DNA of 64,000 nt from Escherichia coli (GCF_965641715.1 NZ_OZ282453.1); one strand, 5' to 3'. Positions 9,189-27,531 are shown, numbered from the stretch's first letter. Program-made: numbers and translations. The notes: generated by a model from the letters alone, not told the origin.

Positions 9189-9202
9189 TTTGTGAGAATA
9201 TT
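9189..9202. repeat. Satellite junction core, left copy (tttgtgagaatatt)
   Basis: First 7 bp identical to 24246..24252, 11/14 over 14 bp; same codon phase in terL. Confidence 0.55.
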
Positions 9203-9270
9203 TCAAGTTTTTTAAAATCACCTGTATATCAATCATTTAAAATGAAAAAACAGTCTTTATAAATCATCGA

Positions 9271-9291
9271 GCAATACACAGCGCAATACAC
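9271..9291. repeat. Tandem GCAATACAC motifs, candidate integrase arm-type sites (left arm)
   Basis: gcaatacacagcgcaatacac; near-identical copy at 24095..24115 beside int. Confidence 0.4.
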
Positions 9292-9480
9292 GTATCTGTA
9301 TTGTTTTAATGCTGATACACACCGTTTTTTGATACAGTGATTCGACCTACCATCGCGAAGCATTTTTTATTTCTTGTGTGTAACAATCTGACGAGGTGAG
9401 CACTCAAAGAGATAAGAGGCAGTAGAAATTTCGATCCCCCCCCTGAATGCAATTTTTCGTATATATATATACAAAACAGT

Positions 9481-9632
9481 GCGGGTTATGCGGGTTAGCG
9501 GGTTATCTTCGCGTGCTAAGTATTTTTTACTCTTTAATATCAATACGTTAAAAAACAACGTATCTAAATATCAGCCAGAATGTAACCCGCAAGACATTCA
9601 AAATAACCCGCAAACACCACTCAAATAACCCG
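9481..9632. repeat. Iteron cluster (3 direct GCGGGTTAT + 3 inverted copies around AT-rich spacer)
   Basis: Same 9-mer family as the cluster next to the primase gene. Confidence 0.55.
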
Positions 9633-9714
9633 CAAAAACATCCCTGAAAGTGGGTGCCGATAATACTGAAAATTTATTCCATTAAATGAGCATTGTCCTC
9701 TCTCATCCATTCCG

Positions 9715-11376
9715 TTACACACCATCAAACGTCGCAAGCCGCTCTTTGTGGCTGTCGCTCATATCGAATGCAAATTCCTCATGCTCTGCCTGGAATGTGC
9801 CAAACGCCATCAGCGCCGCAACGCTCGGGTCTATCTTGTTGGATGATTTTTTCTTGTTCGGCTTGATATTGGCGTTCGCGTCACTCTGCATCACAACATT
9901 ACTCATTGACCAGGCCAGCACCGGATCACCACGATGCACAATCACCTTCCGGTTAACAAAAACTTCGAACGATTTCGCCGCCGGACTGAAACGAAGGTAC
10001 GTTTGCGGGAACGGCTCCACCTCAAATCCCGCCCCCTGTAGCTGTGTTCTCAGGTGAGTGGCGTTCCATGTATCGAAGCCCACCAGCCTGATACTGAAAT
10101 TCTCTGCATCCACCATGATGTCATCACGGATACGGTCATAATCAATGCAGTCACCCGGTGTTGTGCGTATCCAGCCCGCCTTTACCCACTGGCGATAAAT
10201 GGCGCGGTTTTTATTGGCGGGGTTCTGTAACTGAAATTCCGGCAGATAGTGACGGGAAACCAGCATAATCTTTTTACCGACCGGAAAGGCATAGCACACG
10301 CTGGAAATATCGCTGGTTGATGATAAGTCCAGCCCCACGTAGCACTCCTGCCCGTATAAATCCGCCTCCGCGAACGTTCCGGCGCACTCCGCCCATGCAC
10401 CGTTACCCATCCACGGCGTAGCCCCCTGACACCAGATATTGAATCGCTTGGTGAGCATTTCCACCCACTGCGACGGAATACCCCGCGCTTTCTGGATGGT
10501 TGAGGCCAGTTTTTCACGATCGACGGAAACATCGATATTGGGATTCGCCTTTATCCACATCGCCGGATCGTCAACCTCGCTTTCATCATCCAGCTCGTAA
10601 ATCAGTACGAACATGGATTCGTTCACCTCTTCACCATCCAGTATCTGGCAGCAATAGTCGTAGTGTTGTTTACAGGCTGAAACAACGTTGCTCCCCGATG
10701 TGGTGATGGCAAATAATAACCCCTCCGGACGCGCCCCCATTCCCAGTTCAAGCGCGGAATAAACCCCGTTGTCAGGGTGCAGGTGATATTCATCTACAAT
10801 GGCAAGACTCGGGTTTGTACCTTCAATGGTTGCCGCTTTTGCTGCCAGTGGCTTTAACAGGCTGTTGGTTTTCGGGTGTATCACCTTGTGTGCCTGAATA
10901 TTTACCCGCTTTCGTAACGGTCGGGATAAAAGGCACATCTGACGCGCATCATCAAACACGATCCGCGCCTGATCACGACTCACGGCGGCGGTGTAAATAT
11001 CCTGCTGCCCGTTTTCCATAACCAGAAACCAGTTAGCCAGGATAGCGGCGACCGTGGATTTGGCATTTTTTCGCGGTACTTCAATGAATGCGCTGGTGTA
11101 TTTGCGCCGTCCGGTGGCCTTAACCTTAAAGCCCAGGATGCACGCAAAGGCGAACTGCTGCCACGGCTCCAGCTCAATGGGGCTACCGCGCATTGCGCCT
11201 TTTACGTGCGGACACACCCTGGAAAAGGCAATAAACTGCTCCACGACCTCCGGATCGAACGTGTAAAGGGGGTTTTCAAGGTCAGAAAAATACCGTTTAA
11301 CGGCCTGTTTCAGTCGTTTACAGGCCGTAATTTTGCCGTTTTTTACGCCTTCTGCGTACTCATGCCAGGCGGTCAA
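9715..11376 (-). CDS. Terminase large subunit (satellite, intact)
   Basis: 553 aa with ATPase motifs (VPRKNAKST, AIVDEYH) and C-terminal nuclease region. Confidence 0.85.
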   Translation of the reverse strand: MTAWHEYAEGVKNGKITACKRLKQAVKRYFSDLENPLYTFDPEVVEQFIAFSRVCPHVKGAMRGSPIELEPWQQFAFACILGFKVKATGRRKYTSAFIEVPRKNAKSTVAAILANWFLVMENGQQDIYTAAVSRDQARIVFDDARQMCLLSRPLRKRVNIQAHKVIHPKTNSLLKPLAAKAATIEGTNPSLAIVDEYHLHPDNGVYSALELGMGARPEGLLFAITTSGSNVVSACKQHYDYCCQILDGEEVNESMFVLIYELDDESEVDDPAMWIKANPNIDVSVDREKLASTIQKARGIPSQWVEMLTKRFNIWCQGATPWMGNGAWAECAGTFAEADLYGQECYVGLDLSSTSDISSVCYAFPVGKKIMLVSRHYLPEFQLQNPANKNRAIYRQWVKAGWIRTTPGDCIDYDRIRDDIMVDAENFSIRLVGFDTWNATHLRTQLQGAGFEVEPFPQTYLRFSPAAKSFEVFVNRKVIVHRGDPVLAWSMSNVVMQSDANANIKPNKKKSSNKIDPSVAALMAFGTFQAEHEEFAFDMSDSHKERLATFDGV

Positions 11377-11716
11377 GCTCGTCCTCTTCCTCTGTTTCCG
11401 GTGGATTTCTGCGGCGACTTACCGGGTCAAAACCCAGCAAAGAAGCCATTTTGATCATTATTCTTTCAGCGTCAGCCTTTGCGCTCAGGGCGGGGTTTCT
11501 GCTCTCGCTGCCCTGACTGTTAACAATGCTGAACCCGCGCGTGGCAAGGTCTTCGACGGCTTTGCGGTATATGGAGTAGTTAACGCAATACAGCTCCAGA
11601 TTGCTCCAGTCGGCGGGGGTAAGGTCTTCCCGTCCGGAAAGCTGGCGCGATTTTTCCTTCCACTGCCTGACCGCGATTTCATCCAGGTAAGCGGGGGCTT
11701 TTGGTGGTCTTGCCAT
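11360..11716 (-). CDS. Terminase small subunit (satellite)
   Basis: Starts MARPPKAPAYLDE..; overlaps terL start; ORF track extends to 11857. Confidence 0.7.
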   Translation of the reverse strand: MARPPKAPAYLDEIAVRQWKEKSRQLSGREDLTPADWSNLELYCVNYSIYRKAVEDLATRGFSIVNSQGSESRNPALSAKADAERIMIKMASLLGFDPVSRRRNPPETEEEDELDRLA

Positions 11717-12004
11717 GTTCTTTTTTCGCCCAATTATTTTCAAAAAAATTCCCGTGCACAAAAATTTGAGGAGGCGGTCGGTGTCCGGCAGGGACGGTTT
11801 TGTCCTGAAAACCTCCCCCCCCCCCTCTGACGGCCTCACCAGCGATTGCGAAAACATTCCATGACCTCGCGGTCACGGTCGGTTAATCGCTTCGCTGTGG
11901 TGCGTTCTGTGCGCCCTGTCCTGTTGGCTTTGTGCCCTGTCTCCTGTGTCTTCCATAAGTCACGCTGCCTTATCAGTCCACGTATCAGCCTGTTTTGCTC
12001 CTGT

Positions 12005-12445
12005 TCAGTCATCATCGCCATACATCCAGTCGTTACGGTGTGCCGCCCGTTCTTCCTGCTCGCGATACATACCCGCCTTACGGTTCGCTTTCGTGGCTGG
12101 ATCTTCCCGTGTTGTCTTACGGTTATGGCACGTCTGGCACAATGCCTGGTGGTTCCACTCAGGCCAGAAGAGAACATCACCGCCGCCATTGATGGGAATG
12201 ATGTGATCCACCACAAGAGCTGGCGTATAAATCCCCTTAGCCAGACAACGCACGCATAACGGATTTTTGCTCAGGTACAGGGCGCGGTATTTGTCCCACT
12301 GTCGGGAATACCCGCGCGCGCGGCGGTGTCCCCGTCTGGCATCCTCTGCACGCCATGCAGCCCGCCTGTGATCTTCGCACTTGCCGGACTTCACGCGCTT
12401 ATTACAGCCCGGCTCAGTGCATCGCCTTAATGGTTGCCACGGCAT
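12005..12445 (-). CDS. HNH endonuclease (packaging-associated)
   Basis: Cys-rich N-terminus and HNH motif (..DHIIPINGGG..H..C..CH). Confidence 0.8.
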   Translation of the reverse strand: MPWQPLRRCTEPGCNKRVKSGKCEDHRRAAWRAEDARRGHRRARGYSRQWDKYRALYLSKNPLCVRCLAKGIYTPALVVDHIIPINGGGDVLFWPEWNHQALCQTCHNRKTTREDPATKANRKAGMYREQEERAAHRNDWMYGDDD

Positions 12446-12744
12446 CAGTACACCCCTACATCACGATAAACCGACCAGAGCGCAGAAATAGCCATAGGCA
12501 GTTCAGACTGCTCCACAGGTGAAACCGCTTCCCTGTTCTCGTACAGGAAAGCGATGTACATCAGGCAACCAACACGTATTGCCGGGGTAAATTCCAGCCC
12601 GTCTTCAAAACGTTTCCCGATATGCTTCTGGCAGGCTTCCAGCGCCGCATCGGTATACATTTTCAGAAGTTCGCCCTCACCTGAGAAGTCATCAAGGCGA
12701 AGATGTGCCCTGACTTCATCAGGTGTAATTTTTTCTTCACTCAT
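12445..12744 (-). CDS. gp6-like head-tail connector (satellite)
   Basis: MSEEKITPDEVRAHLRLDD.. N-terminus; internal ATG, ORF track start 12825. Confidence 0.55.
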   Translation of the reverse strand: MSEEKITPDEVRAHLRLDDFSGEGELLKMYTDAALEACQKHIGKRFEDGLEFTPAIRVGCLMYIAFLYENREAVSPVEQSELPMAISALWSVYRDVGVY

Positions 12745-13951
12745 CTTTTTCACCTTTAATTTCCACCGTCTGCTTCCATGCCTGGCTGAACTCGTCACCA
12801 CCTTCACGCGGCGGCATCCCCTCACGTTCGCGGGCTTCGTTCGGATTCATGATCCCGTTCTTAATCCCTTTCTCATACGTGGCGTAACGCTCGGTTGGAG
12901 TAGCGCGCAGTAAATCGGCTGAATCAAACTCAACCAGATAACGGGTACCAGGTATGGGAGAAGCCACCAGCAAAGCGGCCTTAATTTGCTGTTCGAAGTT
13001 CGCCAGCCATGGGCGCATTGTCATGGTCAGAAACGCGCGGCTTGCCTCACTGAAATTGCTGTAGGTGCTGTTGCTGTATTCCTGAAGAAAAATCGGCGAC
13101 ACGTTGAACATCCGGGCGATGTCTTCAATGGAGAAGCGACGGGAGGCCAGCCATTCTGCATCCTGGTTACTCATCCCCAGTTGCTTGTAATCCATACCCC
13201 CTTCAAGGATTGGCGTTTTTCCGGCATTTTTCGCCCCCTTGTAGCGTTCCAGGGCGTCTAATGCCTGTTTACCTTTCACGCCGTCCAGCCATTCGCCTGA
13301 CGTGATAATCCCTGCCGCCATCATGCCATCTTTCATAATGCTGGCTCCGTGACGCTGTTGAGCAAGGCCAAGCCCCAGCGCCTCACGGCAAATCGTGACA
13401 GGGGAGCGCCCCAGAAAGCCATCATCCGAGGCATAGCGGAGATGCAGAACTTCTTCCTGCAAATACGTGCGCACCGTTCCTGTATAGGGTTCGGTGATGG
13501 TATAGCGGTATTTGTGTGCGCCAGTGCGTTCCGGTACAACACACCCCGGCGCATAAGGATGAAGTGATTTTGGCTGACCGTCCCGCCCCCACTCAATAAC
13601 CGCATAGGCGTTACCGTTCAGCAGGCAGTGACGCATCATTGTGCGTTTAAACTGGTAAGGTGTCTGGCACGAATTAGGCTGCTCATTCAGCAGAATATCG
13701 ACCGGGTGACTGTCCAGCCATTCCCGCGCCTCCCTGCCCTTGTCATTGCGTACCAGATACAGATAACACGGCATCGTGGCCACCGCCTCAGCGATGACAG
13801 AAACCGCGTTCATCACAGCAGGCAATGATTCAGCCGTCCCGGCAGAAACATATTCTCCGGATCCGGTATTCGGTACGCCGGACAGCGCCAGAAAATCATC
13901 AATGGACAGGTTACGCAGATCGCTTTTTTTACGACTAAAAGGCCACCACAT
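12737..13951 (-). CDS. Portal protein (satellite, HK97 family)
   Basis: Portal-like sequence; ATG at 13951 abuts protease stop; ORF track start 14041. Confidence 0.8.
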   Translation of the reverse strand: MWWPFSRKKSDLRNLSIDDFLALSGVPNTGSGEYVSAGTAESLPAVMNAVSVIAEAVATMPCYLYLVRNDKGREAREWLDSHPVDILLNEQPNSCQTPYQFKRTMMRHCLLNGNAYAVIEWGRDGQPKSLHPYAPGCVVPERTGAHKYRYTITEPYTGTVRTYLQEEVLHLRYASDDGFLGRSPVTICREALGLGLAQQRHGASIMKDGMMAAGIITSGEWLDGVKGKQALDALERYKGAKNAGKTPILEGGMDYKQLGMSNQDAEWLASRRFSIEDIARMFNVSPIFLQEYSNSTYSNFSEASRAFLTMTMRPWLANFEQQIKAALLVASPIPGTRYLVEFDSADLLRATPTERYATYEKGIKNGIMNPNEAREREGMPPREGGDEFSQAWKQTVEIKGEKDE

Positions 13952-13952
13952 A

Positions 13953-14513
13953 TCACAACCCCGCCAGTTCAGCCCAGCGATGACGATTATTTCCTGTCGG
14001 GCGTAATTCAGGGTGCTGTGCAAACAACGAACGGTGGGCAATCTCCACGCCGGATTCGGGATAAGCAGGCATCGACGTTATCGTGATTTCACGGAGTTCT
14101 GCGGCGGTAACAGTGCGCAGATACGGTTTTTGCGCGATATTCCACTCTTCGCATAATGCGCGAAAGCCAAAGCTCATTCCTGTAATGTCGCCACGCTCCA
14201 CCAGCGTAAGCACATCTTTTCCAAGCTGGGTATCAGGCGGTGTCAGTTCAAAACGTAGCCCGGTGTTGTCCTCAGTCAGTACCAGTGTTCCGGATTTGGT
14301 GCGCCCCAGCAGTCGGGTATAGTCATGCTCATACAGGCAGCGCACATCATTACCCGCCGCCAGATAGTCAGCAAAAGCCCCCGGCGTGAACTGTTCGCGG
14401 AATTCGTCCCAGATAATTTCTGAAAGGCTGTTCCAGCGAACGGCATACCCCACCAGCTTTTTATTGCTGGCGGTCAGTTCAGATGTGCGGATTTCAAAAT
14501 CGGTGTTTTTCAT
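13953..14513 (-). CDS. Prohead protease (satellite)
   Basis: 186 aa, ..GYAVRWNS.. region matching HK97 protease pattern. Confidence 0.8.
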   Translation of the reverse strand: MKNTDFEIRTSELTASNKKLVGYAVRWNSLSEIIWDEFREQFTPGAFADYLAAGNDVRCLYEHDYTRLLGRTKSGTLVLTEDNTGLRFELTPPDTQLGKDVLTLVERGDITGMSFGFRALCEEWNIAQKPYLRTVTAAELREITITSMPAYPESGVEIAHRSLFAQHPELRPTGNNRHRWAELAGL

Positions 14514-14567
14514 CGGTGTACTCCATAAAGCTGAAAAAGGAGGCCGCAGCCTCCTCCTTACTCATGA

Positions 14568-15737
14568 CTAGCCAGCTTTCATTTCCAGAATTTTGATGGC
14601 GTTTGAATCCACCACACCACCGCCCAGATATTTATCCGTGTGGACCTTGTAGAATCCGGGCTCAGTAATGTTGTCCGGTCGGGTGCGAATCCCTGTTACA
14701 TGATCAACGATGAAATAACCACGACTGAAATCGCCAACCGCTAGCGGTGCTTTTCCTGCGCCGATGTCCGGCATGGACTCCAGGCAGAAAACAGGACGAC
14801 CAAGCAACATATCCGGCGCACCTTCTTTAAGGCTGTCGCGCCAGATATAATCGCCATTCTCATTTTTCAGCTTCTGTAGTGTCCCTGCCGTGCCCGAGTT
14901 CATCACCCAGACGGCATTTTTGCGGTATTTCGCTTTCAGCTTGTAGAGAATGTCGATCAGTTCGTCCGCTGTAATGGCGGTTCCACTTGCCGCTACCACT
15001 TTTTCAATGGTGCCAAAAGCGCGGGTTTTGTCACTGGTCGCCGCACGGGTGTAAGCCATGAAGCCTTTCGGCTTGCCGTTACCGTCGCCATTAACAAAAT
15101 CATCCTCTTCGGTGCTGGCGAACGTGTCGGCAATTTCGGAGGATAACCAGCCCAGAATATCCACCTCTGAAAAATCCAGGATTTCCTGCGTGGTTTTCGG
15201 GTAGGCGTAGATCGGATTCAGCTTGATGGTTACACGTTCAATTTTCGGGGTGTTGGTTTCACTACGTGCGCAGCCTTCTGTGCCTCGTCCTACAGTTGCG
15301 CCGCCAGTGGAAACCAGTTTCTGAAACTCATTTGATTTTGCGGTCTTCACGGTCGCGATCACGCGCATAACACTGTCATCCTGTAGCTGGCGCATGACTT
15401 CGCGATCAAGCTCAGGAATTACGGTATATCCGCCATCCCTGCCGCTGTCAGTGCTGGTGGACAGTGATCGCACATCTCCGGTTACGATGTAGTTACGCAA
15501 TTCATCAGATGATAATTTCTGGATGCCCGTTCCTGGCTTGCTGCGTTCTTCATCAGCCACAGACTCGAGGCGGTAAATTTCTGTGTCGAGGGAATCGGCT
15601 TTTGCACGCAGTTCATCAAACTGTTTGCCCTCGTCATCGTTCAGGCTGCGGTTTTCACTGTCGGCTTTTTCCAGCAGGGATCGCATCTGGTTTTTCAGGG
15701 CGGTTTTTTGCTGGCGGAGTTCGATTAATTTCTTCAT
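14568..15737 (-). CDS. Major capsid protein (satellite, HK97 fold)
   Basis: 389 aa, coiled N-terminal segment, homologous architecture to 5176..6381. Confidence 0.85.
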   Translation of the reverse strand: MKKLIELRQQKTALKNQMRSLLEKADSENRSLNDDEGKQFDELRAKADSLDTEIYRLESVADEERSKPGTGIQKLSSDELRNYIVTGDVRSLSTSTDSGRDGGYTVIPELDREVMRQLQDDSVMRVIATVKTAKSNEFQKLVSTGGATVGRGTEGCARSETNTPKIERVTIKLNPIYAYPKTTQEILDFSEVDILGWLSSEIADTFASTEEDDFVNGDGNGKPKGFMAYTRAATSDKTRAFGTIEKVVAASGTAITADELIDILYKLKAKYRKNAVWVMNSGTAGTLQKLKNENGDYIWRDSLKEGAPDMLLGRPVFCLESMPDIGAGKAPLAVGDFSRGYFIVDHVTGIRTRPDNITEPGFYKVHTDKYLGGGVVDSNAIKILEMKAG

Positions 15738-15974
15738 GAAGGTTTTCTCGTATTGGTTAAGATTCAGGACGTGAAACCAACACGGAGGGAGCGCCGCCCG
15801 ACACTCTCGGCATCTCGCAGATCAACCCGGCATCGCGCAGGGGGTCAGGCGGCATTGTGGCGGCTCACGTCTGAGTGCCACACGCCAACATATACATAAA
15901 AATCAGTATGTAAACATCAGCCAGAATCACCGAACAACCTGGAACAACCACGAACAAATAATTTACAAAACCTG

Positions 15975-16000
15975 AAAAAAAGACCTGGAGAAAATCCAGG
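15975..16000 (-). terminator. Intrinsic terminator upstream of satellite capsid operon
   Basis: Hairpin cctgga/tccagg followed by T-run on minus strand, directly after ORF 16012..16260. Confidence 0.5.
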
Positions 16001-16011
16001 CCTTTATCGCT

Positions 16012-16260
16012 TTATTGTTTCACTGGATCCCGCATTCTGCGTCTTATTTTCCACAGATATTCGATCATCGCTTCCACCTGCTCACGATTGGTTGCGAAAA
16101 TTTCCCCGGTCAGTGAGCTGCGCAGAAAATCATGATGATCCACAACAAACAACGCATCGGAAGAAAGCAGACGGCGATATTTTTTTGCTGTCGTGGTTTC
16201 CAGATCATCAAAACCATGAAACTTTTTATGTTGCTGGACTTCTTCAAATGTCACTGGCAT
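16012..16260 (-). CDS. Hypothetical protein
   Basis: 82 aa ORF, 4-nt overlap with upstream ProQ-like gene. Confidence 0.4.
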   Translation of the reverse strand: MPVTFEEVQQHKKFHGFDDLETTTAKKYRRLLSSDALFVVDHHDFLRSSLTGEIFATNREQVEAMIEYLWKIRRRMRDPVKQ

Positions 16261-16793
16261 GTATCCCCCTTTGCCGCCCGGCGCTGGCGCTTGTGCTTCT
16301 CATTCAGCGCCATCAGCCGCGTTTCTGCCTCCTGCTGTTCCTGTGGTGTCACTTCCCCACATGGCTGGCCTTTCAGGTCGTATCGTACCCCACCAGCAAC
16401 CAGGGCGCGGTAATAGCGCGGAGACTGCGCATAAGATGCCAGCGTCGCACGTAATGCCCCCGGCCCGAATGCCAGCCCCCTGACGGCGAGATCCTGCATC
16501 AGGTCGTCGAATATCCCCACCTTAAGCGGCTTCGGTGCTTCCCTGTTGAATAAGTCAGGCCACATCTCAGTGAGGCGGTTAACGCGCCTGCGGTTTTTGC
16601 GCTGGCGTTTGGTCATATGCCGCCACGGTGTCACCCCTGTGGGCTGCCCTTTGCGGCTCTGCTGTGCGTTCTGATTGCCGGGTATCACTTTATGCGCCGA
16701 TGTGGTTTTATCCCGCTCTTGCGCCGCCTGCGTCGTTTTCTGCGGCGTGCCGTAAATGCCTTTCGGTTTTCGGTTAATGGTCAGCTTTGTCAT
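16251..16793 (-). CDS. ProQ/FinO-domain RNA-binding protein with basic N-terminal extension
   Basis: ..PLKVGIFDDL..RATLASYAQSPRYYRAL..RYDLKGQPCGEV.. parallels ProQ N-terminal domain. Confidence 0.6.
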   Translation of the reverse strand: MTKLTINRKPKGIYGTPQKTTQAAQERDKTTSAHKVIPGNQNAQQSRKGQPTGVTPWRHMTKRQRKNRRRVNRLTEMWPDLFNREAPKPLKVGIFDDLMQDLAVRGLAFGPGALRATLASYAQSPRYYRALVAGGVRYDLKGQPCGEVTPQEQQEAETRLMALNEKHKRQRRAAKGDTCQ

Positions 16794-16957
16794 GCCTTCC
16801 CCTGTAATTACTCTGTTCGCTGTTGTGAATTAAAACGGTATGTTATCCCCGTACAGGTCATCGTGCTGGCCTGTCTGTTGTTTTGCCCTGTTCAGTGCGT
16901 CAGTGGCCTGCCCCTGTTGGCCTTTTTTGCCGCCCGGTCGCGCCGTTCTCGCACTGA

Positions 16958-17254
16958 TTACGCTGTCTGCGATGACCTGCCAGCCCTGCCGCGTTTCGCC
17001 GTTCTGCCCTGTCCACTGCTTACCTGCATGTTACCCGCCACGCTCACCAGTTCGCCTTTGCGGTGTTTTGCCAGTGCGTCGGCCTGTCTGCCAAACGCCA
17101 GGACGGATAACCACATCGTCGCCGTTCCGTCATCTGCCTGGCTGCATGGCAGGGGAACCGCCATACTCGCCATCGCCATTTGTGTTCCCTTGCTGGTGGT
17201 CTTTAACTGCGGGTCAGCCACCAGCCGCCCGTAAGCCGCTATCTGTGCTGTCAT
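16958..17254 (-). CDS. SSB-like OB-fold protein (tentative)
   Basis: 98 aa, ..GRLVADPQLKTT..TATMWLSVLAFGRQA..KGELVSVAG.. resembles short phage SSBs. Confidence 0.35.
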   Translation of the reverse strand: MTAQIAAYGRLVADPQLKTTSKGTQMAMASMAVPLPCSQADDGTATMWLSVLAFGRQADALAKHRKGELVSVAGNMQVSSGQGRTAKRGRAGRSSQTA

Positions 17255-17318
17255 GCTGTCTGCTCTCCGGTTTTAACGTTGATGGTTACGCTTGTTTACA
17301 CCCTTACGGTGAAATTCT

Positions 17319-19588: not shown

Positions 19589-19899
19589 TTTGCCTTTCCC
19601 CGTTCACGAATAATTTCACGTACTGCCTTAATGCGTTCCATTCCTGTAACGCGCATGATTCTGTCGATGTCGCTTAATTCTGCTGGTGGTGCTTTACTTA
19701 CCAAGGTGAACTCCCTGTCAAAGCGCATATGTGACGACACGCAGGGATGCGCATAACCTTCGCGGATATAGGTCACACGAAAATCATCGACGGTTTTGAT
19801 CGTTATCGTGCTGCCGTATTTATCCTGGAAAATATCGCCGGGGCGGATTTCAGGCCGAGCGGGGCCGCTGGCAGTAAAGCCAGAATTTTTCTTTTTCAT
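19585..19899 (-). CDS. Hypothetical protein
   Basis: 104 aa, 4-nt overlap with primase gene. Confidence 0.4.
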   Translation of the reverse strand: MKKKNSGFTASGPARPEIRPGDIFQDKYGSTITIKTVDDFRVTYIREGYAHPCVSSHMRFDREFTLVSKAPPAELSDIDRIMRVTGMERIKAVREIIRERGKAK

Positions 19900-19904
19900 G
19901 TTTT

Positions 19905-20153
19905 TTACTCCAGAGGCAGCTTTTTAGCGGCGAGCTCAATATCAGATGTCAGAGAAACCTGTGTATTTGCCAGGTCTAACAACAAAGAAATAAGAATTTC
20001 TTCTCTGCTATCGGATTTATCGGTGCTAAGGCTGTTCATCCACATATTGACGACTTCCCTGATTTTTTTCGCAGAGTGCAGGGCTTCAAATGCCAGGTCT
20101 TCAATATCATGTTTATTTCGCATAATCGCCCCCGCCATTTTCACAATCAGCAA
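19905..20153 (-). CDS. Hypothetical protein
   Basis: 82 aa ORF in early leftward operon. Confidence 0.3.
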   Translation of the reverse strand: MLIVKMAGAIMRNKHDIEDLAFEALHSAKKIREVVNMWMNSLSTDKSDSREEILISLLLDLANTQVSLTSDIELAAKKLPLE

Positions 20154-20358
20154 TCAGGATGGCTTTTGCCTCATTCAGCGCCATATCAGCACTAAATTGC
20201 ATAACAGCCAGTGAGTGAGGAACGAAAGCCCCGGCATATTCTGTTTCGCTGGTGGCGTGCTTATGCGCCTTGTCTGCGATAACAGAAATATCAATCAGCG
20301 CGTGCATCAGCGTTTTGATGGCTTCGGCGGCTGCGTCCGGACGGGTGTTATTGCACAT
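20113..20358 (-). CDS. Hypothetical protein
   Basis: 81 aa ORF, first gene of leftward operon. Confidence 0.3.
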   Translation of the reverse strand: MCNNTRPDAAAEAIKTLMHALIDISVIADKAHKHATSETEYAGAFVPHSLAVMQFSADMALNEAKAILIADCENGGGDYAK

Positions 20359-20651
20359 GGCGCACCTCCTGACGAATACGGGCAGCGAATACCATCACGC
20401 AGCCAGCCGGGGATTGCTGGCGTGCTTCCTGTTCGCTAGTGGCCTCAATGGTAATCACACGCGGTTGTGCCGTGCTCAGGGCGATAAAACGCCAGATGTA
20501 TTTATTCAGGTTGTGCGAGTCCCGCCCTTGCGGGTGTGTGGTATGATTTAACATAGCTACCTCGATAATCTTGCTATCGTTGGTGGTTAGAAGCCCGGTT
20601 AGTGTTAGCGCACTGCCGGGTTTCGTCGTTTGTATTTCAATAAAACCATTG

Positions 20652-20729
20652 GTGTGTTTCATGTTATTTTGGAGTGAAACACACGTCAAGCCTTTTTTGT
20701 ATTTCTTTTTTGTGTATACTGAAACACAC
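20652..20729. promoter_or_regulatory. Divergent promoter/operator region with three TGAAACACAC half-sites
   Basis: Perfect 10-bp inverted repeat GTGTGTTTCA..TGAAACACAC plus third copy overlapping a TATACT -10. Confidence 0.45.
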
Positions 20730-20750
20730 CAAATTTGAGGAGTTTCAGTT

Positions 20751-21056
20751 ATGGCGACTACCAACAAAAACGCTAAATCACAATTGACCACCGTCAGAGT
20801 CCCCCACGATGTTATGGAGGGCATGGAATCCGTAAAACTGGACGGCGAAAGCAACGCCGGATTCATAGTAACCGCCATGCGCGGTGAGATCGCCCGCCGC
20901 CAGGCAGAAGGAAGCGGAGAAAATCCCCTGGTTTCTTCGCTCGATGCACTGGCGCAGGTGGAAAAAATTGGAGTCAAGGCTGCCGAGGAGATCGGGCAAC
21001 TCGTCACCGTCGCGCGTGAAGAACTCCAGCGACGCAAGGTCAAAGAGCAGGAATAG
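20751..21056 (+). CDS. Ribbon-helix-helix-like regulator (tentative)
   Basis: GAGGAG RBS; N-terminal TTVRVPHDVMEGMESV..AGFIVTAMRGEI pattern. Confidence 0.45.
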   Translation: MATTNKNAKSQLTTVRVPHDVMEGMESVKLDGESNAGFIVTAMRGEIARRQAEGSGENPLVSSLDALAQVEKIGVKAAEEIGQLVTVAREELQRRKVKEQE

Positions 21057-21113
21057 CCACTATCAGCGCCATAGTTTGAGGAACGCAGGCGCATTGCTTT
21101 ACAGGACAGCACC

Positions 21114-21293
21114 ATGAGCGACACAGAATCAACCAAAACACCATCACCAACTCGTAAGAGACGACGCAAAAATATAGCGCATGAACATGAATCAGAAAGA
21201 TTCGCACCTTGTTCGTTTGCTCTTGAGAAATTCCTTAAAGAGCACAGGAAAAAGCTCTCGTTGCAAACCTTGGAACGAACCAAATCTGACTGA
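21114..21293 (+). CDS. Small basic protein (59 aa)
   Basis: ORF below track cutoff, followed by two intrinsic terminators. Confidence 0.25.
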   Translation: MSDTESTKTPSPTRKRRRKNIAHEHESERFAPCSFALEKFLKEHRKKLSLQTLERTKSD

Positions 21294-21359
21294 TCACATT
21301 GCCCACCAGCCGCAAATGTGGCATTGTTGGTGATGCTTTTGTTTTCCCTTGTTCCCACT

Positions 21360-21388
21360 GGCGACCCTTTTGCGGTCGCCTTTGTTTT
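21360..21388 (+). terminator. Intrinsic terminator
   Basis: ggcgaccc tttt gcggtcgcc followed by T-rich run. Confidence 0.45.
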
Positions 21389-21483
21389 GCCTGTTATCCG
21401 GCAATAGTGGCGCTTCGTCACCTGTCTGATATAATTCCACAGCTTATATTCATTTTTTGCGCAGTAGGTTAATTGTTCGCAAG

Positions 21484-21515
21484 GGCGCTCCGGCAACGGG
21501 GCGCTTTTTGTTTTT
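21484..21515 (+). terminator. Intrinsic terminator with GCAA tetraloop
   Basis: gcgctccg GCAA cggggcgc then tttttgttttt. Confidence 0.4.
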
Positions 21516-21673
21516 ACCCACCAGCACAATAAAAATCTTCATTTTCCATTTTTGTAAAATTTCATGCTTTCCGGACGACTGGTCATATGTCATTTTTTAG
21601 CAGAAGATTTTGCCTTGCTGGTGGGTAGCTTCCCGGTCAACACGATGTACCGTATAATCAACACCGCGTGTGG

Positions 21674-22252
21674 TTACTGAATACGCTCACCAAAGTAAAA
21701 CTCAGGCTGGTATTCACGTATCAGCCTTTTTTCTTCTTCCTCCAGCTCACGCTTTTTGCGCTTACATGCCTGTAGCTCCCTCCCCTTCTCACTGGCACTT
21801 ATCTGGTATTGCTCTTTGCGGCGGGAAAAATCCTGTAATGCGCCCCACGGGATACCATAAGCCCCCGTTTTTCTGATACCCGGTATCACATTTCTGAATA
21901 CCCAGTTACTGAAACGATGAGCAAATGTGCCAGGCGTCGTTGCTTTGCGGCTGCGGGCTATTAGTTTGTAGAAACCTGACTCGGAGATAATGCTCATATT
22001 CTGATTTCCTCCGGGGGTGTAAGTTAAATTTACTCCCTTTTCGTCATCATCAAGCATCTGCAACGCCGTACGCGAATTGGTCAATTCCAGCGCAGCACAA
22101 ACATCCTTTGCAACAAACCACGGATCGCCGTTTAGATACACCACACGAACATCCACGCCATCAAAGCGCAGAACGACCAGATCACGAATATCACAGAATT
22201 TTTTCACATGACGTGCGTCACCCTTGCCCGTCACGGCAATATTTTTATTCAT
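21674..22252 (-). CDS. Bro-N domain protein (antirepressor-like)
   Basis: ..FDGVDVRVVYLNGDPWFVAKDVCAALE.. matches Bro-N consensus. Confidence 0.7.
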   Translation of the reverse strand: MNKNIAVTGKGDARHVKKFCDIRDLVVLRFDGVDVRVVYLNGDPWFVAKDVCAALELTNSRTALQMLDDDEKGVNLTYTPGGNQNMSIISESGFYKLIARSRKATTPGTFAHRFSNWVFRNVIPGIRKTGAYGIPWGALQDFSRRKEQYQISASEKGRELQACKRKKRELEEEEKRLIREYQPEFYFGERIQ

Positions 22253-22309
22253 TGCTTTTTACCTCACATACAAAAAACCCCGCATTGCGTGGTGCGGGGT
22301 TGTCGGTAA

Positions 22310-22588
22310 TTACTTATTGGCGTTTTTGTATGGGCTGTTTACTTCCTTTACTCCTGGCGGATGCATAACCCACCAGAGCACATCAGAGAGCAACCAGGAA
22401 ACAGACACTTTCCCTAAATGAGCACGAGCAGGAAATGCTCCCTCCTGTTCAAGTACCCAACGTCTGCTTCTTGAAAGCCCGGTACGATTGGCACACTCAT
22501 GTTCGCGTATACGGCGATCATACGGTTCGCCATGATCTTTCAGAATCTGAATGCGTTCTTCGGGTGTAGGATAAATAAATTTTTGCAT
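22310..22588 (-). CDS. AlpA-family regulator / excisionase-like
   Basis: HECANRTGLSRSRRWVLEQEGAFP..VSWLLSDVLWWV; internal ATG, ORF track start 22618 is TTG. Confidence 0.6.
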   Translation of the reverse strand: MQKFIYPTPEERIQILKDHGEPYDRRIREHECANRTGLSRSRRWVLEQEGAFPARAHLGKVSVSWLLSDVLWWVMHPPGVKEVNSPYKNANK

Positions 22589-22651
22589 AAAAATATCACC
22601 TATAAAAAAACCCGCCAAAAGACGGGTTGATTATATCTCATTTAATTTAGC

Positions 22652-22873
22652 TCAGGGTTTCCATTCACCTTTTACCCATTCCAGCACCTCAGATAAGCGC
22701 CAGACTTTTGTTTGTGGGCCAATACATATTTTTCGTGGAAATTTTCCTTCCTTTTCAAGTAACGATCTGTGTCTCCTGCCAAGAGCGGTTAACCATGCAC
22801 ATTCATCCTCCTTAATCATCCTGTCGATTGTTTCATCATTTTCAAGTTCTTCACGCGTAACTATTTGAATCAT
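22652..22873 (-). CDS. AlpA-family regulator / excisionase-like
   Basis: DECAWLTALGRRHRSLLEKEGKFP..VWRLSEVLEWV; start uncertain (22885, 22873 or 22819). Confidence 0.6.
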   Translation of the reverse strand: MIQIVTREELENDETIDRMIKEDECAWLTALGRRHRSLLEKEGKFPRKICIGPQTKVWRLSEVLEWVKGEWKP

Positions 22874-24074
22874 TACTGTCACCACTAATTTGCTTATTCA
22901 GATAGTCGTACCACCAGTTCATAGCTTCTTTTTTTCTGTCCATATACTGGCTTCTGTTATAAACCCCGGCAACACCGCCTAATGTGTGCCCAAGCAACTG
23001 TTCAACCACATTATGTTCAAAACCATGATCACTTAGTTTTGTGGCAAACACTCTTCGCATATCATGCGCCGTCCATTTCTCCGAGTGTTTCATCCTTTTC
23101 CATGTCTTACCGATAGTTACGCTTGCCGTACACTGACGCATATCAAACCCAATCACATTTTCTTTGTTACCTGTTATTTTTTTTAACGTAACTAACCAGT
23201 TAAACATGCCATCAGGAATCGGTCTGATTATTTCCCTGCCATTTTTGCTATGATCAGCGGGAACGCGCCATAATTTCTTATCAAAATCCCACTCTACCCA
23301 GGACGACAGTAATACTTCTGACAGTCGACAACCAAAAACTACCAGGAAACGTAAAATAATTCGGTTTTCATATGATAATTCGTGATTGTCATAATCAGTA
23401 TTAATACTTCGCCATAAATCTCTGATTTCATCATCTGTTAAAACCCTGCTTCTTCGCGCAGACTTTTTTCCCACATCACAGACCTCAAGATCATCAATTT
23501 CATGACTAATCGCGTATTTTCTTACCCTACAAAATTTAAGCGCCTGTTTTGATATACGCAACAAAGCTCCGGCCTGTACAGGTGCTACTTTTTTTATTTT
23601 GTCAAAACACTTAATCCACATAGATATAGAGCAATCACTAAGTGGTACATGACCAATCACCGGATAAATATGTTTACCAAAGCACTGCCTGATATGTTCT
23701 GCTCCCCTACGCTTATCCATTGCATAATTATCAAGCCAGTATTCAAGTGCCTCACGAACGGTAACAGGTTGCAAGGTGGCTTCCCGTTCAATTTTTATCT
23801 GAATCCGTGGATCTCTGCCCTCCGCAAGCCAGGTTCGACACTGATCGCGCATCTCTCTCGCTGATTTGAGACTCAGATCAGGATATTTTCCAAGTGTCAG
23901 CCAGATGGGCGCGGTTCCCCTTCCCGCCAGTCTGTAAAAGAAAACAAAACTAACACATCCGTATTTACTGACCCGTACCGAAAGCCCGTTACCATCAGCG
24001 ATGGTTTCCTGCCTCTCACTCCTGCGCCCAAGCAGGGAACGAAGTTTTTTATCGCTCAGTTTGTTTAGCGCCAT
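22851..24074 (-). CDS. Tyrosine integrase, P4 type (satellite)
   Basis: MALNKLSDKKLRSL.. N-terminus, C-terminal HxxR..Y catalytic region; ORF track start 24110. Confidence 0.85.
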   Translation of the reverse strand: MALNKLSDKKLRSLLGRRSERQETIADGNGLSVRVSKYGCVSFVFFYRLAGRGTAPIWLTLGKYPDLSLKSAREMRDQCRTWLAEGRDPRIQIKIEREATLQPVTVREALEYWLDNYAMDKRRGAEHIRQCFGKHIYPVIGHVPLSDCSISMWIKCFDKIKKVAPVQAGALLRISKQALKFCRVRKYAISHEIDDLEVCDVGKKSARRSRVLTDDEIRDLWRSINTDYDNHELSYENRIILRFLVVFGCRLSEVLLSSWVEWDFDKKLWRVPADHSKNGREIIRPIPDGMFNWLVTLKKITGNKENVIGFDMRQCTASVTIGKTWKRMKHSEKWTAHDMRRVFATKLSDHGFEHNVVEQLLGHTLGGVAGVYNRSQYMDRKKEAMNWWYDYLNKQISGDSNDSNSYA

Positions 24075-24094
24075 GTGATTTATAACCCGTTTTT

Positions 24095-24115
24095 GCAATA
24101 CACAGTGCAATACAC
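24095..24115. repeat. Tandem GCAATACAC motifs, candidate integrase arm-type sites (right arm)
   Basis: gcaatacacagtgcaatacac just upstream of int; copy at 9271..9291. Confidence 0.4.
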
Positions 24116-24245
24116 AAATGATGAAAACAGCCAGAACCTTCCAGAAAAAACAAAAACGACGAACAAGAAAAAATCTTTTTCTTTCATTTGGTTACTAAAA
24201 AAATCAGGACAGGTCGCACTGTTGTTACGGCGTGATGTTACTTTC

Positions 24246-24259
24246 TTTGTGAAAAAATT
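24246..24259. repeat. Satellite junction core, right copy (tttgtgaaaaaatt)
   Basis: First 7 bp identical to 9189..9195; encodes ..FTK of the terL N-terminal fragment. Confidence 0.55.
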
Positions 24260-25273
24260 CACCCGCGCCGAGACCTGCTCCTTCGCCTTTTTCGCCAGAC
24301 GACGCAGATCATCCCAGCGTTTACAGATGCCCAGGCCGGGATTCGCTTTCTGCCAGACCGTTTCATCAAACGGATCATCTCCCTCATCGAGCGTGTAAAT
24401 GATCGCAAAGTAAGAGTCGTCTTTTACCGCGCCCTCCACGTCACTGTTATAGCCACGCAATACCTTAATGGCGTAATCACGCTGCTCGTAACAAATCCCT
24501 TCCTTGTTAAACCCTGCCGTGGTGATACCAAATAAAAGGGACTGCAGACGGGCACCGGTTGCCGTTTCCAGAACGTCCCACACGTCACGGGTTTTATGTG
24601 CATGCAGCTCATCAATAATGGCGCAGTGGATGTTCAGACCGTCCAGGTTGTTTGCATCCGAGGAAAGCGGTTCAAATTTTGATGCGCTCTGCTCCTGGTA
24701 GATCGCCAGCTTGTTGAAATCAAATAACCGCCCGAGTGTCGACCGGGCTTTTCTGACCATATTTTTGGCGTCTTCAAACACGATTCTGGCCTGGTCACGC
24801 GTGGTTGCGGCTGAATACACCTCAGCTCCACCTTCACCATCTGCCCCCGTCATATACAGGCCGATACCCGATGACAGAGTTGATTTTGCGTTTTTACGGG
24901 CGACTTCGTTGTACGCCGTCCGGAACCGGCGCACCATCACCGGACGTCCGCTGCCATCGCTGCGCATGACAACTTCCCCGGTCTCTTCATTCACCAGCGG
25001 AATGACAAAACCAAAAATATTAATGAGGATAAATACATGCCAGTCCATCAACTCAATGGGCTGGCCTGCCAGCGCCCCTTTTACATGAGGCACAAATTTG
25101 TAGAAATTCAGGATGTGCTGCGCACGGGGTTCACTGAAATAAATCCCCCGCTCTTCGCCGTACTTCAGATCATCAAGAAAACGCTGGCAGGCCAGACGGA
25201 CAAATTCCCCAGCAACAATTTCTCCTGCAACAACACGTTCGGCGTAGCGGATCCCGTCAGCCACTTTTGCCAT
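24253..25273 (-). pseudogene. Terminase large subunit, N-terminal ATPase fragment (gene split by satellite)
   Basis: ORF 24080..25273: first ~340 aa align to TerL N-terminus (VARKNAKST, AIIDELH), then 54 unrelated residues read into the satellite. Confidence 0.8.
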
Positions 25274-25755
25274 CAGTCTCTCGCTTTTAAAAGCTCTGCC
25301 AGCGGATCAACATCATCCGGTCCGGCGATATTTACTTTCGCCCGGCTTGCCGGTGACATACCAAACTCTGCAAGCATTGCCCGGATCCGCTTCCAGGCAT
25401 CCGCTTTCATTGCCGCCGCGGGGTGCGCCTTAATCAGTACATCACCGCTCTGCGTTTCCGTGCGGTAGGTATACCCCTCAACATCGAGTGTTTCGCAGTG
25501 ATGCCGATATTCGGTGTAGGCTTCCACCAGCAACTCGAGCGCACGCGCATCAAGCTGAGAAATGATCCCTTCCGCATTCAGCTCTTCCGCCATTCGCCTG
25601 AACCAGTACTTCCCCTGAGCCCCTAAATGCTGCGGAATTTTAGGAAGACCTTTTTCATCCTTTTTAGCGGTTTTTTTGGGGTCTTTAACGGGGCGCTTTG
25701 AGGGATTGCCTCGTATCAAATGCAGGCGTGGCGGGGTTTTCGGAGGTCCTGACAT
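25273..25755 (-). CDS. Terminase small subunit (helper prophage)
   Basis: 160 aa, MSGPPKTPPRL.. start, stop overlaps terL start. Confidence 0.7.
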   Translation of the reverse strand: MSGPPKTPPRLHLIRGNPSKRPVKDPKKTAKKDEKGLPKIPQHLGAQGKYWFRRMAEELNAEGIISQLDARALELLVEAYTEYRHHCETLDVEGYTYRTETQSGDVLIKAHPAAAMKADAWKRIRAMLAEFGMSPASRAKVNIAGPDDVDPLAELLKARD

Positions 25756-25903
25756 AATCGGTTTTACCTATCAATCATTTAATCACATTCCCAAAAAAAA
25801 GTTTTCGAACCTGCGGCGATGCGAGGAAAGGTCAGGCGGCGGTACTGAGCAGCCAGGGCTGCAGAGATTTGACCCGCCCCTCCCCTACAGATGGGAACTG
25901 TTA

Positions 25904-26254
25904 TCAATTGATGCGTTCGCGTGCTGTTTTTGCTTTATGACAGGGGCAGCACAGACTCTGCAGGTTACTGTCTGCATCCGTGCCACCATGAGCTTTCGGA
26001 ATGATGTGGTCCACAGTTCTGGCTTCAACGGCTCTCCCATTGCGCATGCAGTTCTGACACAGATGATTATCACGCTTCAGTATGCGCGCACGTATGGCAT
26101 CCCATTTCGAGCCATAGCCACGCTGGTGGCGGCTCAGTCCGCGCTGATGCTGTACCCATCCTTCGCCACGATGTTTATCGCAGTAACCAGAACTGTCTGT
26201 GGTTGTACCTGCACATCCACGCTTACGGCAGGCGCGGGGGATTTGTGATGGCAT
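25904..26254 (-). CDS. HNH endonuclease (helper prophage)
   Basis: Cys-rich N-terminus and ..DHIIPKAHGGTD..CCPCH motif; ORF track start 26290. Confidence 0.75.
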   Translation of the reverse strand: MPSQIPRACRKRGCAGTTTDSSGYCDKHRGEGWVQHQRGLSRHQRGYGSKWDAIRARILKRDNHLCQNCMRNGRAVEARTVDHIIPKAHGGTDADSNLQSLCCPCHKAKTARERIN

Positions 26255-26296
26255 AGAATTTCGCTCCGCTAAAAAATATTCTGCTCTCACCGTCGG

Positions 26297-26479
26297 TCAG
26301 TTCTGCAGACACTGCCGGACACTATCAACAATTTCGCAGACCTGAGAAGCTGTATCGAAAAGCTGACGCGCCTTATCCAGGCTGACGCATCCCGCCAAGA
26401 AAAAAGGCACCAGTATCGCTACCAGTGCCCATTTCGCCGCCACTCGTGGCATTCTGTGTGTCCAGTGTTTTCTGCTCAT
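26297..26479 (-). CDS. Lipoprotein, possible outer-membrane spanin
   Basis: Signal peptide with lipobox ..FFLAGC; last gene of lysis cassette; ORF track start 26551. Confidence 0.4.
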   Translation of the reverse strand: MSRKHWTHRMPRVAAKWALVAILVPFFLAGCVSLDKARQLFDTASQVCEIVDSVRQCLQN

Positions 26480-26493
26480 AACACACCTGGTTA

Positions 26494-26877
26494 TCAGCGT
26501 TTCAACTGAAAGTGAGGCCCGTCTTTCAGTGTTTTCCAGTCCCCGCCCCATTCGATGGCAGTTCCCAGCTCTGCGGCAGCCTGCTTAAATGCCTGCGCGA
26601 TTTTCTCGTACAGAGCCCAGTCCCATGACACCTGGCTGCCAACGTAAGCCACAACATCCACCGCATCACCGGTCAGGTGACGACTGTTCATGGTCTGGCT
26701 CTTGCCTTCTGCAACCAGCTGTTTCTGGCGTTCTTTCGTGCGCAGGCCTTCCGTAATACCGAAATCAACCTCCGTCAGCTCCAGCGCACGGCGAACCACG
26801 GCAACCAGCTGTGGTTTGACGCCCTCCAGATTCTTTTCGCTGCGACGACTAAATCTGAATTTACCCGACATATTCAC
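26494..26877 (-). CDS. Endolysin, M15-type peptidase
   Basis: SRHLTGDAVDV matches SxHxxGxAxD zinc-peptidase motif; follows membrane proteins. Confidence 0.65.
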   Translation of the reverse strand: MNMSGKFRFSRRSEKNLEGVKPQLVAVVRRALELTEVDFGITEGLRTKERQKQLVAEGKSQTMNSRHLTGDAVDVVAYVGSQVSWDWALYEKIAQAFKQAAAELGTAIEWGGDWKTLKDGPHFQLKR

Positions 26878-27149
26878 CTCAACAATGGAAAGATTTTTGT
26901 GACGTTCCCGCGTGCGCGTATTACCAGTACGCAGAACAACAGATTAAAAAACACGACCAGCCAGTTACCGGGAAGAATGGTGCCACAGAGAAAGGCAAGT
27001 GGCGGAAGCGCATATACCGTCATCAACAACCAGGCCAGCCATGACATCAGCGGTTTGTGTCTGGAGTCACGACGGCGATAAAAAAAGAGCGTCGGCACGA
27101 TAAACGAGCACAACGCCACATTCAGCAATCCGGGAAGGTTATTTAACAT
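26874..27149 (-). CDS. Membrane protein of lysis cassette (holin/antiholin-like)
   Basis: ~91 aa, three hydrophobic segments; ORF track start 27203. Confidence 0.4.
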   Translation of the reverse strand: MLNNLPGLLNVALCSFIVPTLFFYRRRDSRHKPLMSWLAWLLMTVYALPPLAFLCGTILPGNWLVVFFNLLFCVLVIRARGNVTKIFPLLR

Positions 27150-27531
27150 TGCCGCCTCCTCCGCCCCGCAGGCGGGAGAACAGGCCGGACACCAGTGATG
27201 CAATATCCTGCTGGTGGATGAACGACAGAATCTTTACCGACACCACTGACACCAGTACTGCACACAATGCGTCAACAGGTGCACCGTCAAACCCTGTATG
27301 CTTTACCAGCCAGGACGCCAGAACCTCTGCGCCCAGCACGCCGATAATGAACGACACAAGAAAATGCGCCACCACACGCCAGGCTGAAAGCGCCTGCGGC
27401 ATCGTTGCCACAAATAACGCCCCGGCGAACGCACCAAACACAATCCCGAAATCCGTTCCGGTAAACAGCCCGAAGACCGTCGCTCCACCGAGCGCCGCAG
27501 CCGTGCCGGAACCGGATAAGGGTTCAGACAT
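27139..27531 (-). CDS. Holin-like membrane protein
   Basis: Gly/Ala-rich TM helices, AGGAG RBS before ATG at 27531; ORF track start 27654. Confidence 0.45.
   Translation of the reverse strand: MSEPLSGSGTAAALGGATVFGLFTGTDFGIVFGAFAGALFVATMPQALSAWRVVAHFLVSFIIGVLGAEVLASWLVKHTGFDGAPVDALCAVLVSVVSVKILSFIHQQDIASLVSGLFSRLRGGGGGNVK

Follow-up and report, generated by a model that had tools for sequence, protein, structure and literature searches.

The satellite and its insertion site in helper terL

We analyzed a window of 64,000 nt from an Escherichia coli genome (GCF_965641715.1, NZ_OZ282453.1), in which a phage satellite lies inside terL, the gene for the large terminase subunit, of a resident prophage, its helper; positions are counted from the first nucleotide of this window. 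The satellite is a member of group A:Terminase_1:246 of the helper-embedded phage-inducible chromosomal islands (HE-PICIs), defined by Tommasini, Mageeney and Williams (2023, NAR Genom Bioinform 5:lqad036; PMC10111431), and its layout, its insertion site and the idea of transcriptional read-through from the helper are already known. It measures 15,057 bp and occupies 9189-24252, with the duplicated core included at both ends. The 7 bp core, TCACAAA in the minus-strand reading, is found at 24252-24246 in attL and at 9195-9189 in attR, and agrees with the published att identity 'tcacaaa'.

The satellite splits helper terL into a 5′ fragment (24246-25273, minus strand), annotated as 'terminase large subunit, missing C-terminus' in three relatives (L001-L003), and a 3′ fragment carrying the nuclease domain (8459-9188, minus), which PGAP names 'TerL endonuclease subunit, missing N-terminus'. 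When the flanks are joined through one core copy, the result is an in-frame terL of 1758 nt encoding 585 aa, and an 800 nt reconstruction of the joined gene is 100% identical to the uninterrupted terL of NZ_CP043821. The empty site, scored as coverage of at least 80% of this reconstruction, is present in 905 of 5426 complete E. coli genomes, and the attL junction was found in 35 complete genomes of the species. In genomes with an uninterrupted terL, the match ends exactly at 24246. A sequence-only reading of the window had placed the satellite at 9189-27531 inside the helper late operon and on its strand. The location and strand hold, with terL restorable across the core, and the left boundary is exact, being the last base of the attR core copy. 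Its right end marks no junction and falls within a holin gene of the helper: satellite DNA stops at 24252, and the segment 24253-27531 belongs to the helper, containing the terL 5′ fragment, terS, HNH and lysis genes.

The helper is an E. coli lambdoid prophage of the HK97-head type. Its late genes are on the minus strand in the order Q, two tRNAs, holins, M15 endolysin, a spanin-like open reading frame (ORF), HNH, terS, the terL 5′ fragment (terL′), the satellite, the terL 3′ fragment, and portal onward. The 231 aa Q (29222-29917, minus) matches Pfam PF06323 Phage_antiter_Q (E=1.8e-91) and is annotated as antitermination protein Q in L001 and in the induced phage vB_EcoM-606R7; a comparison with solved structures gave no meaningful match. 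The late leader contains two tRNA genes with CAT and TCT anticodons (28859-29012, minus; ARAGORN; Rfam tRNA 72.5 and 59.4 bits). It is followed by the lysis cassette with HNH (25904-26290) and terS (25273-25755), together spanning 25273-27654 on the minus strand as ORFs, for which the PGAP names in L001 are holins, M15 peptidase, HNH and P27-family terS. The remaining late genes (164-8447, all minus) encode portal, protease, capsid, connectors, tail tube, chaperones and tape measure. On the other side, an S24-type repressor (36090-36728), a cro-like ORF and the helper integrase (42114-43232) precede chromosomal genes, which begin at ~43.3 kb. To the left of the insert, the helper late genes (9188 nt) share 97.6% identity with vB_EcoM-606R7 (38.5-kb record), in which Q, tRNAs, lysis genes, HNH, terS, terL and portal run in one direction as in the helper. 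The terL gene of this phage is intact at 1758 nt, the length of the reconstituted helper ORF.

Between the helper tRNA genes and the terminator preceding the lysis genes lies ~0.9 kb of AT-rich DNA (27930-28860, ~43% GC), where a degenerate sequence at 28284-28355 resembles a third tRNA (27.1 bits, below the Rfam threshold). In lambdoid phages, cargo genes are often found at this position.

Within the satellite the order is int, alpA1, a terminator (T1), alpA2, a second terminator (T2), Bro-N, a gap containing a YlcI/YnfO-family gene, replication genes, a third terminator (T3) and a capsid/packaging operon, which by PGAP names and Pfam matches follows the HE-PICI zone order of Integration, Bro, Replication and Late. 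The 407 aa tyrosine integrase (22851-24074, minus; Pfam Phage_integrase and Arm-DNA-bind_3) shares 50% pairwise identity with that of a capE:80 HE-PICI and 41-42% with those of non-embedded PICIs. Two genes with Pfam Phage_AlpA matches follow: alpA1 (22652-22873, minus; coordinates from PGAP annotation of the relatives), which overlaps the int 3′ end by 23 nt, and alpA2 (22310-22588, minus). AlpA proteins of non-embedded capsid-forming PICIs (cf-PICIs) are 55-58% identical to alpA2 versus 48-52% to alpA1. The alpA1 product resembles that of the int-adjacent alpA of capE HE-PICIs.

Downstream of a Bro-N domain protein (21674-22252, minus; E=7e-20), a 1.3-kb stretch holds as its only gene the YlcI/YnfO-family ORF (20751-21056, plus), which bears this PGAP name in L001-L003 and has no Pfam match; plus-strand terminators are located nearby at 21360-21380 and 21481-21508. 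The replication zone (16012-20358, minus; Pfam, PGAP) encodes an Icd-like protein, small ORFs, DUF4222, a DUF927 primase (17465-19588), SSB, a ProQ/FinO protein and a hypothetical protein. The capsid/packaging operon (9715-15737, minus; Pfam) encodes major capsid protein, S78 protease, portal, head-tail connector, HNH, TerS and TerL; no tail or lysis gene is among the annotated satellite genes. Judged from its genes, the late zone is of the cf-PICI type. The head and packaging proteins share 19-41% identity with their helper counterparts. We considered satellite TerL as a stand-in for the broken helper protein and rejected it: substitution is unlikely because the identity is 32% for TerL and 26% for TerS. 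As the sequence-only reading had stated, one small divergent unit is the sole exception to co-orientation with the helper late genes. This unit is the YlcI/YnfO gene; the PGAP annotations of the 98.5%-identical L001 and of L002 and L003 agree on the strands, and the Pfam matches support the gene calls.

The ProQ/FinO-domain RNA-binding protein (16251-16793, Pfam E=9e-25) is replaced at the same position by a PerC-family regulator in L002, L003 and L004. Between satellite terL and attR, the repeat TAACCCGCA / TGCGGGTTA occurs six times in the non-coding segment 9480-9635, in three direct and three inverted copies, which could be a cos or TerS-binding site or an origin. An Rfam scan of 8000-30500 returned the helper tRNAs and one sub-threshold match to SymR antitoxin RNA at 20555-20627 (plus; 33.6 bits versus a gathering threshold of 61, E=0.006); lying just upstream of the Icd-like gene region, it is probably due to chance.

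The state of both elements makes it very improbable that the insertion is a dead end, in which terL of a decaying prophage was knocked out, satellite and helper are both inactive and their orientation has no functional meaning. Many HE-PICI helpers do look truncated, and virions were not recovered for 50icd/11capE (PMC10111431), but in the window every satellite ORF is intact, as are Q, the S24-type repressor, the helper integrase and the terL that can be restored. The reconstructed junction equals a live empty site at 100% identity, and phages recovered by induction match the helper late region at 97.6%. A sister HE-PICI has been shown to excise precisely upon induction (PMC10111431). The relatives provide some evidence for a dead end: cro is annotated as frameshifted in L001, IS1414 sits in the gap between Bro and the regulator of the L001 satellite (strain EC416; L001 24127-25335), and an IS3-family element lies next to attR in L003 (strain TUM1881; L003 32785-34013). 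These acquisitions of insertion sequences suggest that some satellite copies are decaying; the window appears to be free of IS1414.

Transcription signals along the late strand

A consensus scan found a candidate helper late promoter of the PR′ kind (29210-29238, minus; 9/12 match), with −35 TTGCAA at 29238-29233, a 17 nt spacer and −10 TATATT at 29215-29210. It overlaps the Q stop codon, and a promoter directly after Q is in the position typical of lambdoid phages. A tR′-like intrinsic terminator follows ~45-75 nt downstream (29130-29158, minus), formed by the hairpin AAAACCCGC/GCGGGUUUU and a U-rich tract (−16.6 kcal/mol, z=−3.5). On its sequence, this combination of promoter-like site and hairpin after Q is the arrangement expected of a lambdoid late promoter and tR′. 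Two further hairpins precede terS: a second intrinsic terminator upstream of the lysis genes (27905-27924, minus; 8-bp stem and U8, −12.4 kcal/mol, z=−4.5), and a terminator-like hairpin in the lysis cassette (26405-26430, minus; −18.5 kcal/mol, followed by U6), which lies within an 84 aa ORF (26297-26551).

The satellite carries three sense-strand terminators: T1 between alpA1 and alpA2 (22609-22628, minus; −13.8 kcal/mol, U7, z=−5.2), T2 between alpA2 and Bro-N (22276-22301, minus; −15.6 kcal/mol, U6) and T3 before the capsid operon (15975-16000, minus; −15.7 kcal/mol, U7, z=−4.3). T1 and T2, which box in alpA2, are 100% conserved in L001-L003. The helpers of these relatives differ in their Q and lysis modules. 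The alpA2 gene starts 21 nt after the T1 stem, ~13 nt after its U-tract. The sequence-only reading had proposed the late promoter at ~29210, where the promoter-like site adjoining the Q stop codon is indeed present. It had also named two terminators, at 27899-27922 and 15975-16000; both (here 27924-27905 and 16000-15975) are real hairpins with U-tracts, but it had credited the satellite with only the latter and missed those at 22628-22609, 22301-22276 and 26430-26405.

No sense-strand terminator-like site was detected between 24748 and 22628, which covers the path from terL′ to int, or between the satellite terL stop (9715) and attR (9189). In the integrated state, no strong promoter (9/12 match) was found between the core and int. 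The terL′ frame stays open for 55 codons past attL, running through the arm-type motif to a TAA at 24082-24080; this stop is 5 nt before the int ATG (24074) in the window and in L001-L003. The published catalogue lists 'terminase/int fusion' annotations for some A:Terminase_1:246 members (PMC10111431), in which the terL′ frame is presumably brought into that of int by a T-run of another length. Translational coupling between the late gene and int as a general HE-PICI trait was rejected, as the stop of the interrupted gene fragment E′ is 132 nt before int in capE:80 elements; any coupling of terL′ and int is thus specific to this site and possibly incidental. The distance from int to alpA is also variable: a 23 nt overlap here, a 1 nt gap in the capE:80 elements, and 365-420 nt in three non-embedded relatives.

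Promoter-like sites are also present within the satellite. A control region at 20649-20732, preceding the replication genes and beside the YlcI/YnfO gene, contains TTGACG, 17 nt and TAACAT (20689-20661, minus), flanked by three operator-like repeats of TGAAACACAC, an inverted pair with 13 nt between the arms and a third copy. From these elements, the region looks like an operator/repressor switch for the replication operon. Another promoter-like site precedes the capsid operon (15887-15914, minus; TTTACA, 16 nt, TATGTT) and is followed by a leader of ~140 nt. The whole control region of this operon (16010-15738, 273 nt) is 97.4% identical in the non-embedded cf-PICI L005 at cspD/clpS. The capsid-operon leader, within 15738-15914, is GC-rich and marginally more stable in its predicted fold than shuffled sequences (−50.1 kcal/mol, z=−1.8).

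Helper late transcription and satellite excision

As the satellite sits inside helper terL and is co-oriented with it, helper late transcription should run straight into it. Taken together, the best explanation of the locus is an A:Terminase_1:246 HE-PICI with a cf-PICI-type late zone, for which Q-dependent read-through is the most likely trigger of excision; we give this reading as a whole a probability of roughly 0.6. A tyrosine integrase would have inserted the satellite at TCACAAA inside terL of the HK97-head-type lambdoid prophage, and the att sites fix its orientation, so that int, alpA, primase and capsid genes share their direction with the helper late operon. In the lysogen, transcription would start at the helper late promoter but halt at tR′, leaving int-alpA1 quiet. 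Upon induction, Q-modified polymerase would cross the lysis genes, HNH, terS and terL′ and enter int and alpA1 without a barrier.

Q antitermination renders the modified polymerase resistant to terminators. On its way from the Q-adjacent promoter to attL, a polymerase has to cross at least three terminators and must therefore be antiterminated; being Q-modified, it is expected to pass T1-T3 and the 1.3-kb untranslated stretch as well. It would proceed through T1, alpA2 and T2, run antisense to the YlcI/YnfO gene in that stretch, and then traverse the replication genes, T3 and the capsid operon before entering the portal, capsid and tail genes of the helper. Int and AlpA made late would then excise the satellite, restoring helper terL and freeing a 15-kb circle, which would be replicated and packaged by the satellite's own proteins. 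After excision the satellite's own promoters would take over, probably under AlpA2 and the divergent regulator.

We consider it very probable that read-through itself occurs. That it sets the timing of int/alpA expression, and hence of excision, is probable. Read-through would thus be no more than one layer of control, chiefly over excision, and it is not the sole driver of the satellite late genes. The same satellite resides in helpers with three different Q and lysis modules (L001-L003).

Several points weigh against this interpretation. Promoters and terminators were called solely from matches to consensus, and the literature searched contained neither transcript data for this or any HE-PICI nor later papers testing read-through. 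The satellite's own promoter-like sites precede both the replication operon, with its operator-like repeats, and the capsid operon. A chromosomal off-target copy of the A:Terminase_1:246 group exists (A246_DUF333|yeaN), and induction of related cf-PICIs is known to act in trans by way of alpA (10.1101/2022.09.08.507074). A cf-PICI at chromosomal cspD/clpS shares the replication and packaging modules at 96% identity, and the block has ~85% DNA identity to a more distant O157 element at roxA/phoQ. Read-through is not required for the replication, packaging and capsid modules, because sequences 96-97% identical to them reside in a chromosomal cf-PICI that helper late transcription cannot reach.

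These observations lead to the principal competing explanation, induction in trans only: a helper product would switch on alpA and the satellite promoters, and the read-through RNA would be a by-product. Co-orientation would then be tolerated, or selected merely for avoiding head-on collisions and giving helper late transcription access to the portal, capsid and tail genes past the insert. The 96-97% identity of replication, packaging and capsid-control sequences in non-embedded relatives, the promoter-like sites and operator-like repeats inside the satellite, and the chromosomal off-target members of the group all fit it. So do the alpA-dependent induction of the cf-PICI EcCIEDL933 (10.1101/2022.09.08.507074) and the greater similarity of alpA2 to the AlpA genes of non-embedded PICIs. 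This explanation has difficulty with int-alpA1, which has no intergenic region and no upstream 9/12 promoter when integrated, and with alpA2, which at 21 nt past the T1 stem leaves no room for an obvious promoter. In addition, given the established properties of Q, an incoming Q-modified polymerase cannot be kept from transcribing the satellite genes. We regard induction solely in trans as possible but rather unlikely.

The sequence-only reading had suggested that the satellite could be induced directly by helper late-gene antitermination. The barrier-free path from terL′ to int, the int-alpA1 overlap and the position of alpA2 between terminators speak for this, whereas the satellite's own promoter-like sites and its non-embedded relatives speak against it as the direct driver of the entire element. 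Its observation of the layout is thus confirmed, and the mechanism, proposed in print in 2023 for the family and the insertion site, is plausible, partly supported and inferential.

A more specific version of read-through control emerged from the attP site, reconstructed by joining 9196-9215 to 24230-24252. It contains a sigma-70-like promoter toward int (TTGAAA, 17 nt, TAACAT) whose spacer encloses the core; in attL, GGTGAA of helper terL replaces the attP −35 at the same 17 nt spacing, with a 1/6 match. Integration might act as a promoter swap for int, such that embedded int-alpA1 would be expressed only as the tail of the Q-antiterminated late transcript, the sole trigger of excision. If so, unexcised helper copies, lacking terL yet transcribed to the tail genes, would supply tails to the satellite. 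When attP was rebuilt for the 14 published site groups, a TTGxAA-17-TAnnAT-like 9/12 match was present in 7/14 and the 17 nt spacing in 11/14. The non-embedded fis PICI used as a control reached 9/12 in both attP and attL, and the V49 attL reached 10/12. The specificity of a crossover-spanning promoter is uncertain because the fis PICI control also scores 9/12. In view of these scores, the common ancestry of the groups and the post hoc nature of the test, we rejected the attP-spanning promoter as a firm result, keep it as a lead, and find the promoter swap itself doubtful.

Embedding would have further consequences for the helper. Without the insert it measures ~38.5 kb and the composite ~53.6 kb; the latter would be too large for a head sized for 38.5 kb, so helper and satellite would have to separate before packaging. 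In the composite, the satellite head genes would be upstream of the helper head and tail genes on the same transcript, and the extra 15 kb would have to delay expression of the helper structural genes. HE-PICIs can be viewed as a cis-acting form of phage parasitism, in which an essential helper gene is held hostage and helper late transcription may time the escape. As the layout and hypothesis were already published, what the window adds is only a clean, intact example of a capsid-forming satellite in terL, with a helper close to inducible phages. The locus would suit a test of read-through, having exact junctions, a defined region of Q, late promoter and tR′, and three satellite terminators that only an antiterminated polymerase should pass.

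Relation to known satellites and gene-interrupting elements

HE-PICIs were described from 491 elements, which occupy 14 sites within nine late genes of prophages, with integrases forming a single clade, and helper late transcription into the satellite, with restoration of the late gene upon excision, was proposed in the Discussion of that study (PMC10111431). The listed member Eco14930.15.A_Terminase_1_246, from the same host species, is 15,055 bp compared with 15,057 bp here. It shares the core tcacaaa, an identical attL and a nearly identical attR, the difference being small and confined to the distal arm. Through these att matches the integrase is assigned to the group indirectly. A doubled motif specific to HE-PICIs, tgTGTATTGCantgTGTATTGCa, is reported 81 ± 2 bp upstream and 132 ± 2 bp downstream of the attP center (PMC10111431). 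In the satellite, the doubled TGTATTGC motif, a candidate arm-type site, is found at about the same spacing: an int-proximal copy at 24095-24116 (minus), ~133 nt downstream of the core center, and a distal copy at 9271-9292 (minus), ~80 nt upstream. The internal terminators and the int-alpA1 overlap are not mentioned in that paper, which treats terL′-int fusions only as an annotation problem.

Co-orientation with the interrupted late gene is likewise shared with the group. At a single site, orientation is a coin toss set by site-specific recombination; the argument against chance rests on the published late-gene sites: integrase, AlpA and primase are co-oriented with the interrupted gene at 14/14 site groups (PMC10111431). 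We re-checked this at two of them, terL:246 (L001-L003) and capE:80 (L006, L007), and it holds at both. For the sister HE-PICI 11capE, located in capsid gene E, quantitative PCR and deep sequencing showed that precise excision takes place only ~2 h after mitomycin C, when the composite has been excised and replicated (PMC10111431).

The satellite resembles cf-PICIs (prototype EcCIEDL933) in having int-alpA-primase followed by a full capsid/packaging operon, with no tail or lysis genes, in ~15 kb. Each component by which cf-PICIs are recognized (int, alpA, rep and a complete capsid/packaging set) has a Pfam match, and its 15,057 bp compare with a size range of 10-15 kb. A cf-PICI builds small capsids from proteins of its own and borrows only tails from its helper. 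As first defined, however, cf-PICIs have their own chromosomal attB, said never to be occupied by prophages (Alqurainy et al., 2023; 10.1101/2022.09.08.507074). The satellite falls outside the family so defined because its attB is within a prophage gene, although it would function like a member. It also differs in its integrase module (41-42% identity), its two alpA genes, the overlap of alpA1 with int, and its residence inside the helper. The cf-PICIs described so far are induced in trans, in an alpA-dependent manner for EcCIEDL933 (10.1101/2022.09.08.507074). No known phage record contains the satellite; only a 16.5-kb Klebsiella 'induced prophage' resembles part of it, with ~76% identity over 3 kb of capsid and portal genes.

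Satellite P4, with its helper P2, also has a P4-family integrase and an AlpA/Vis-type regulator, and its expression is governed largely by termination and read-through. Unlike the satellite studied here, P4 integrates in the chromosome, is activated in trans and encodes neither capsid nor terminase. A P4-type immunity RNA was considered and rejected, as the Rfam scan of 8000-30500 gave no C4/isrK (P4 CI RNA) match at E≤0.1.

The elements of regulated gene integrity, or active lysogeny, such as skin in Bacillus sigK and phi10403S in Listeria comK, offer another parallel: they too interrupt a gene without providing a replacement, and precise, staged excision restores it. In contrast to these elements, the satellite interrupts a gene of another mobile element, its helper phage, and the timing of excision would serve the satellite rather than the cell.

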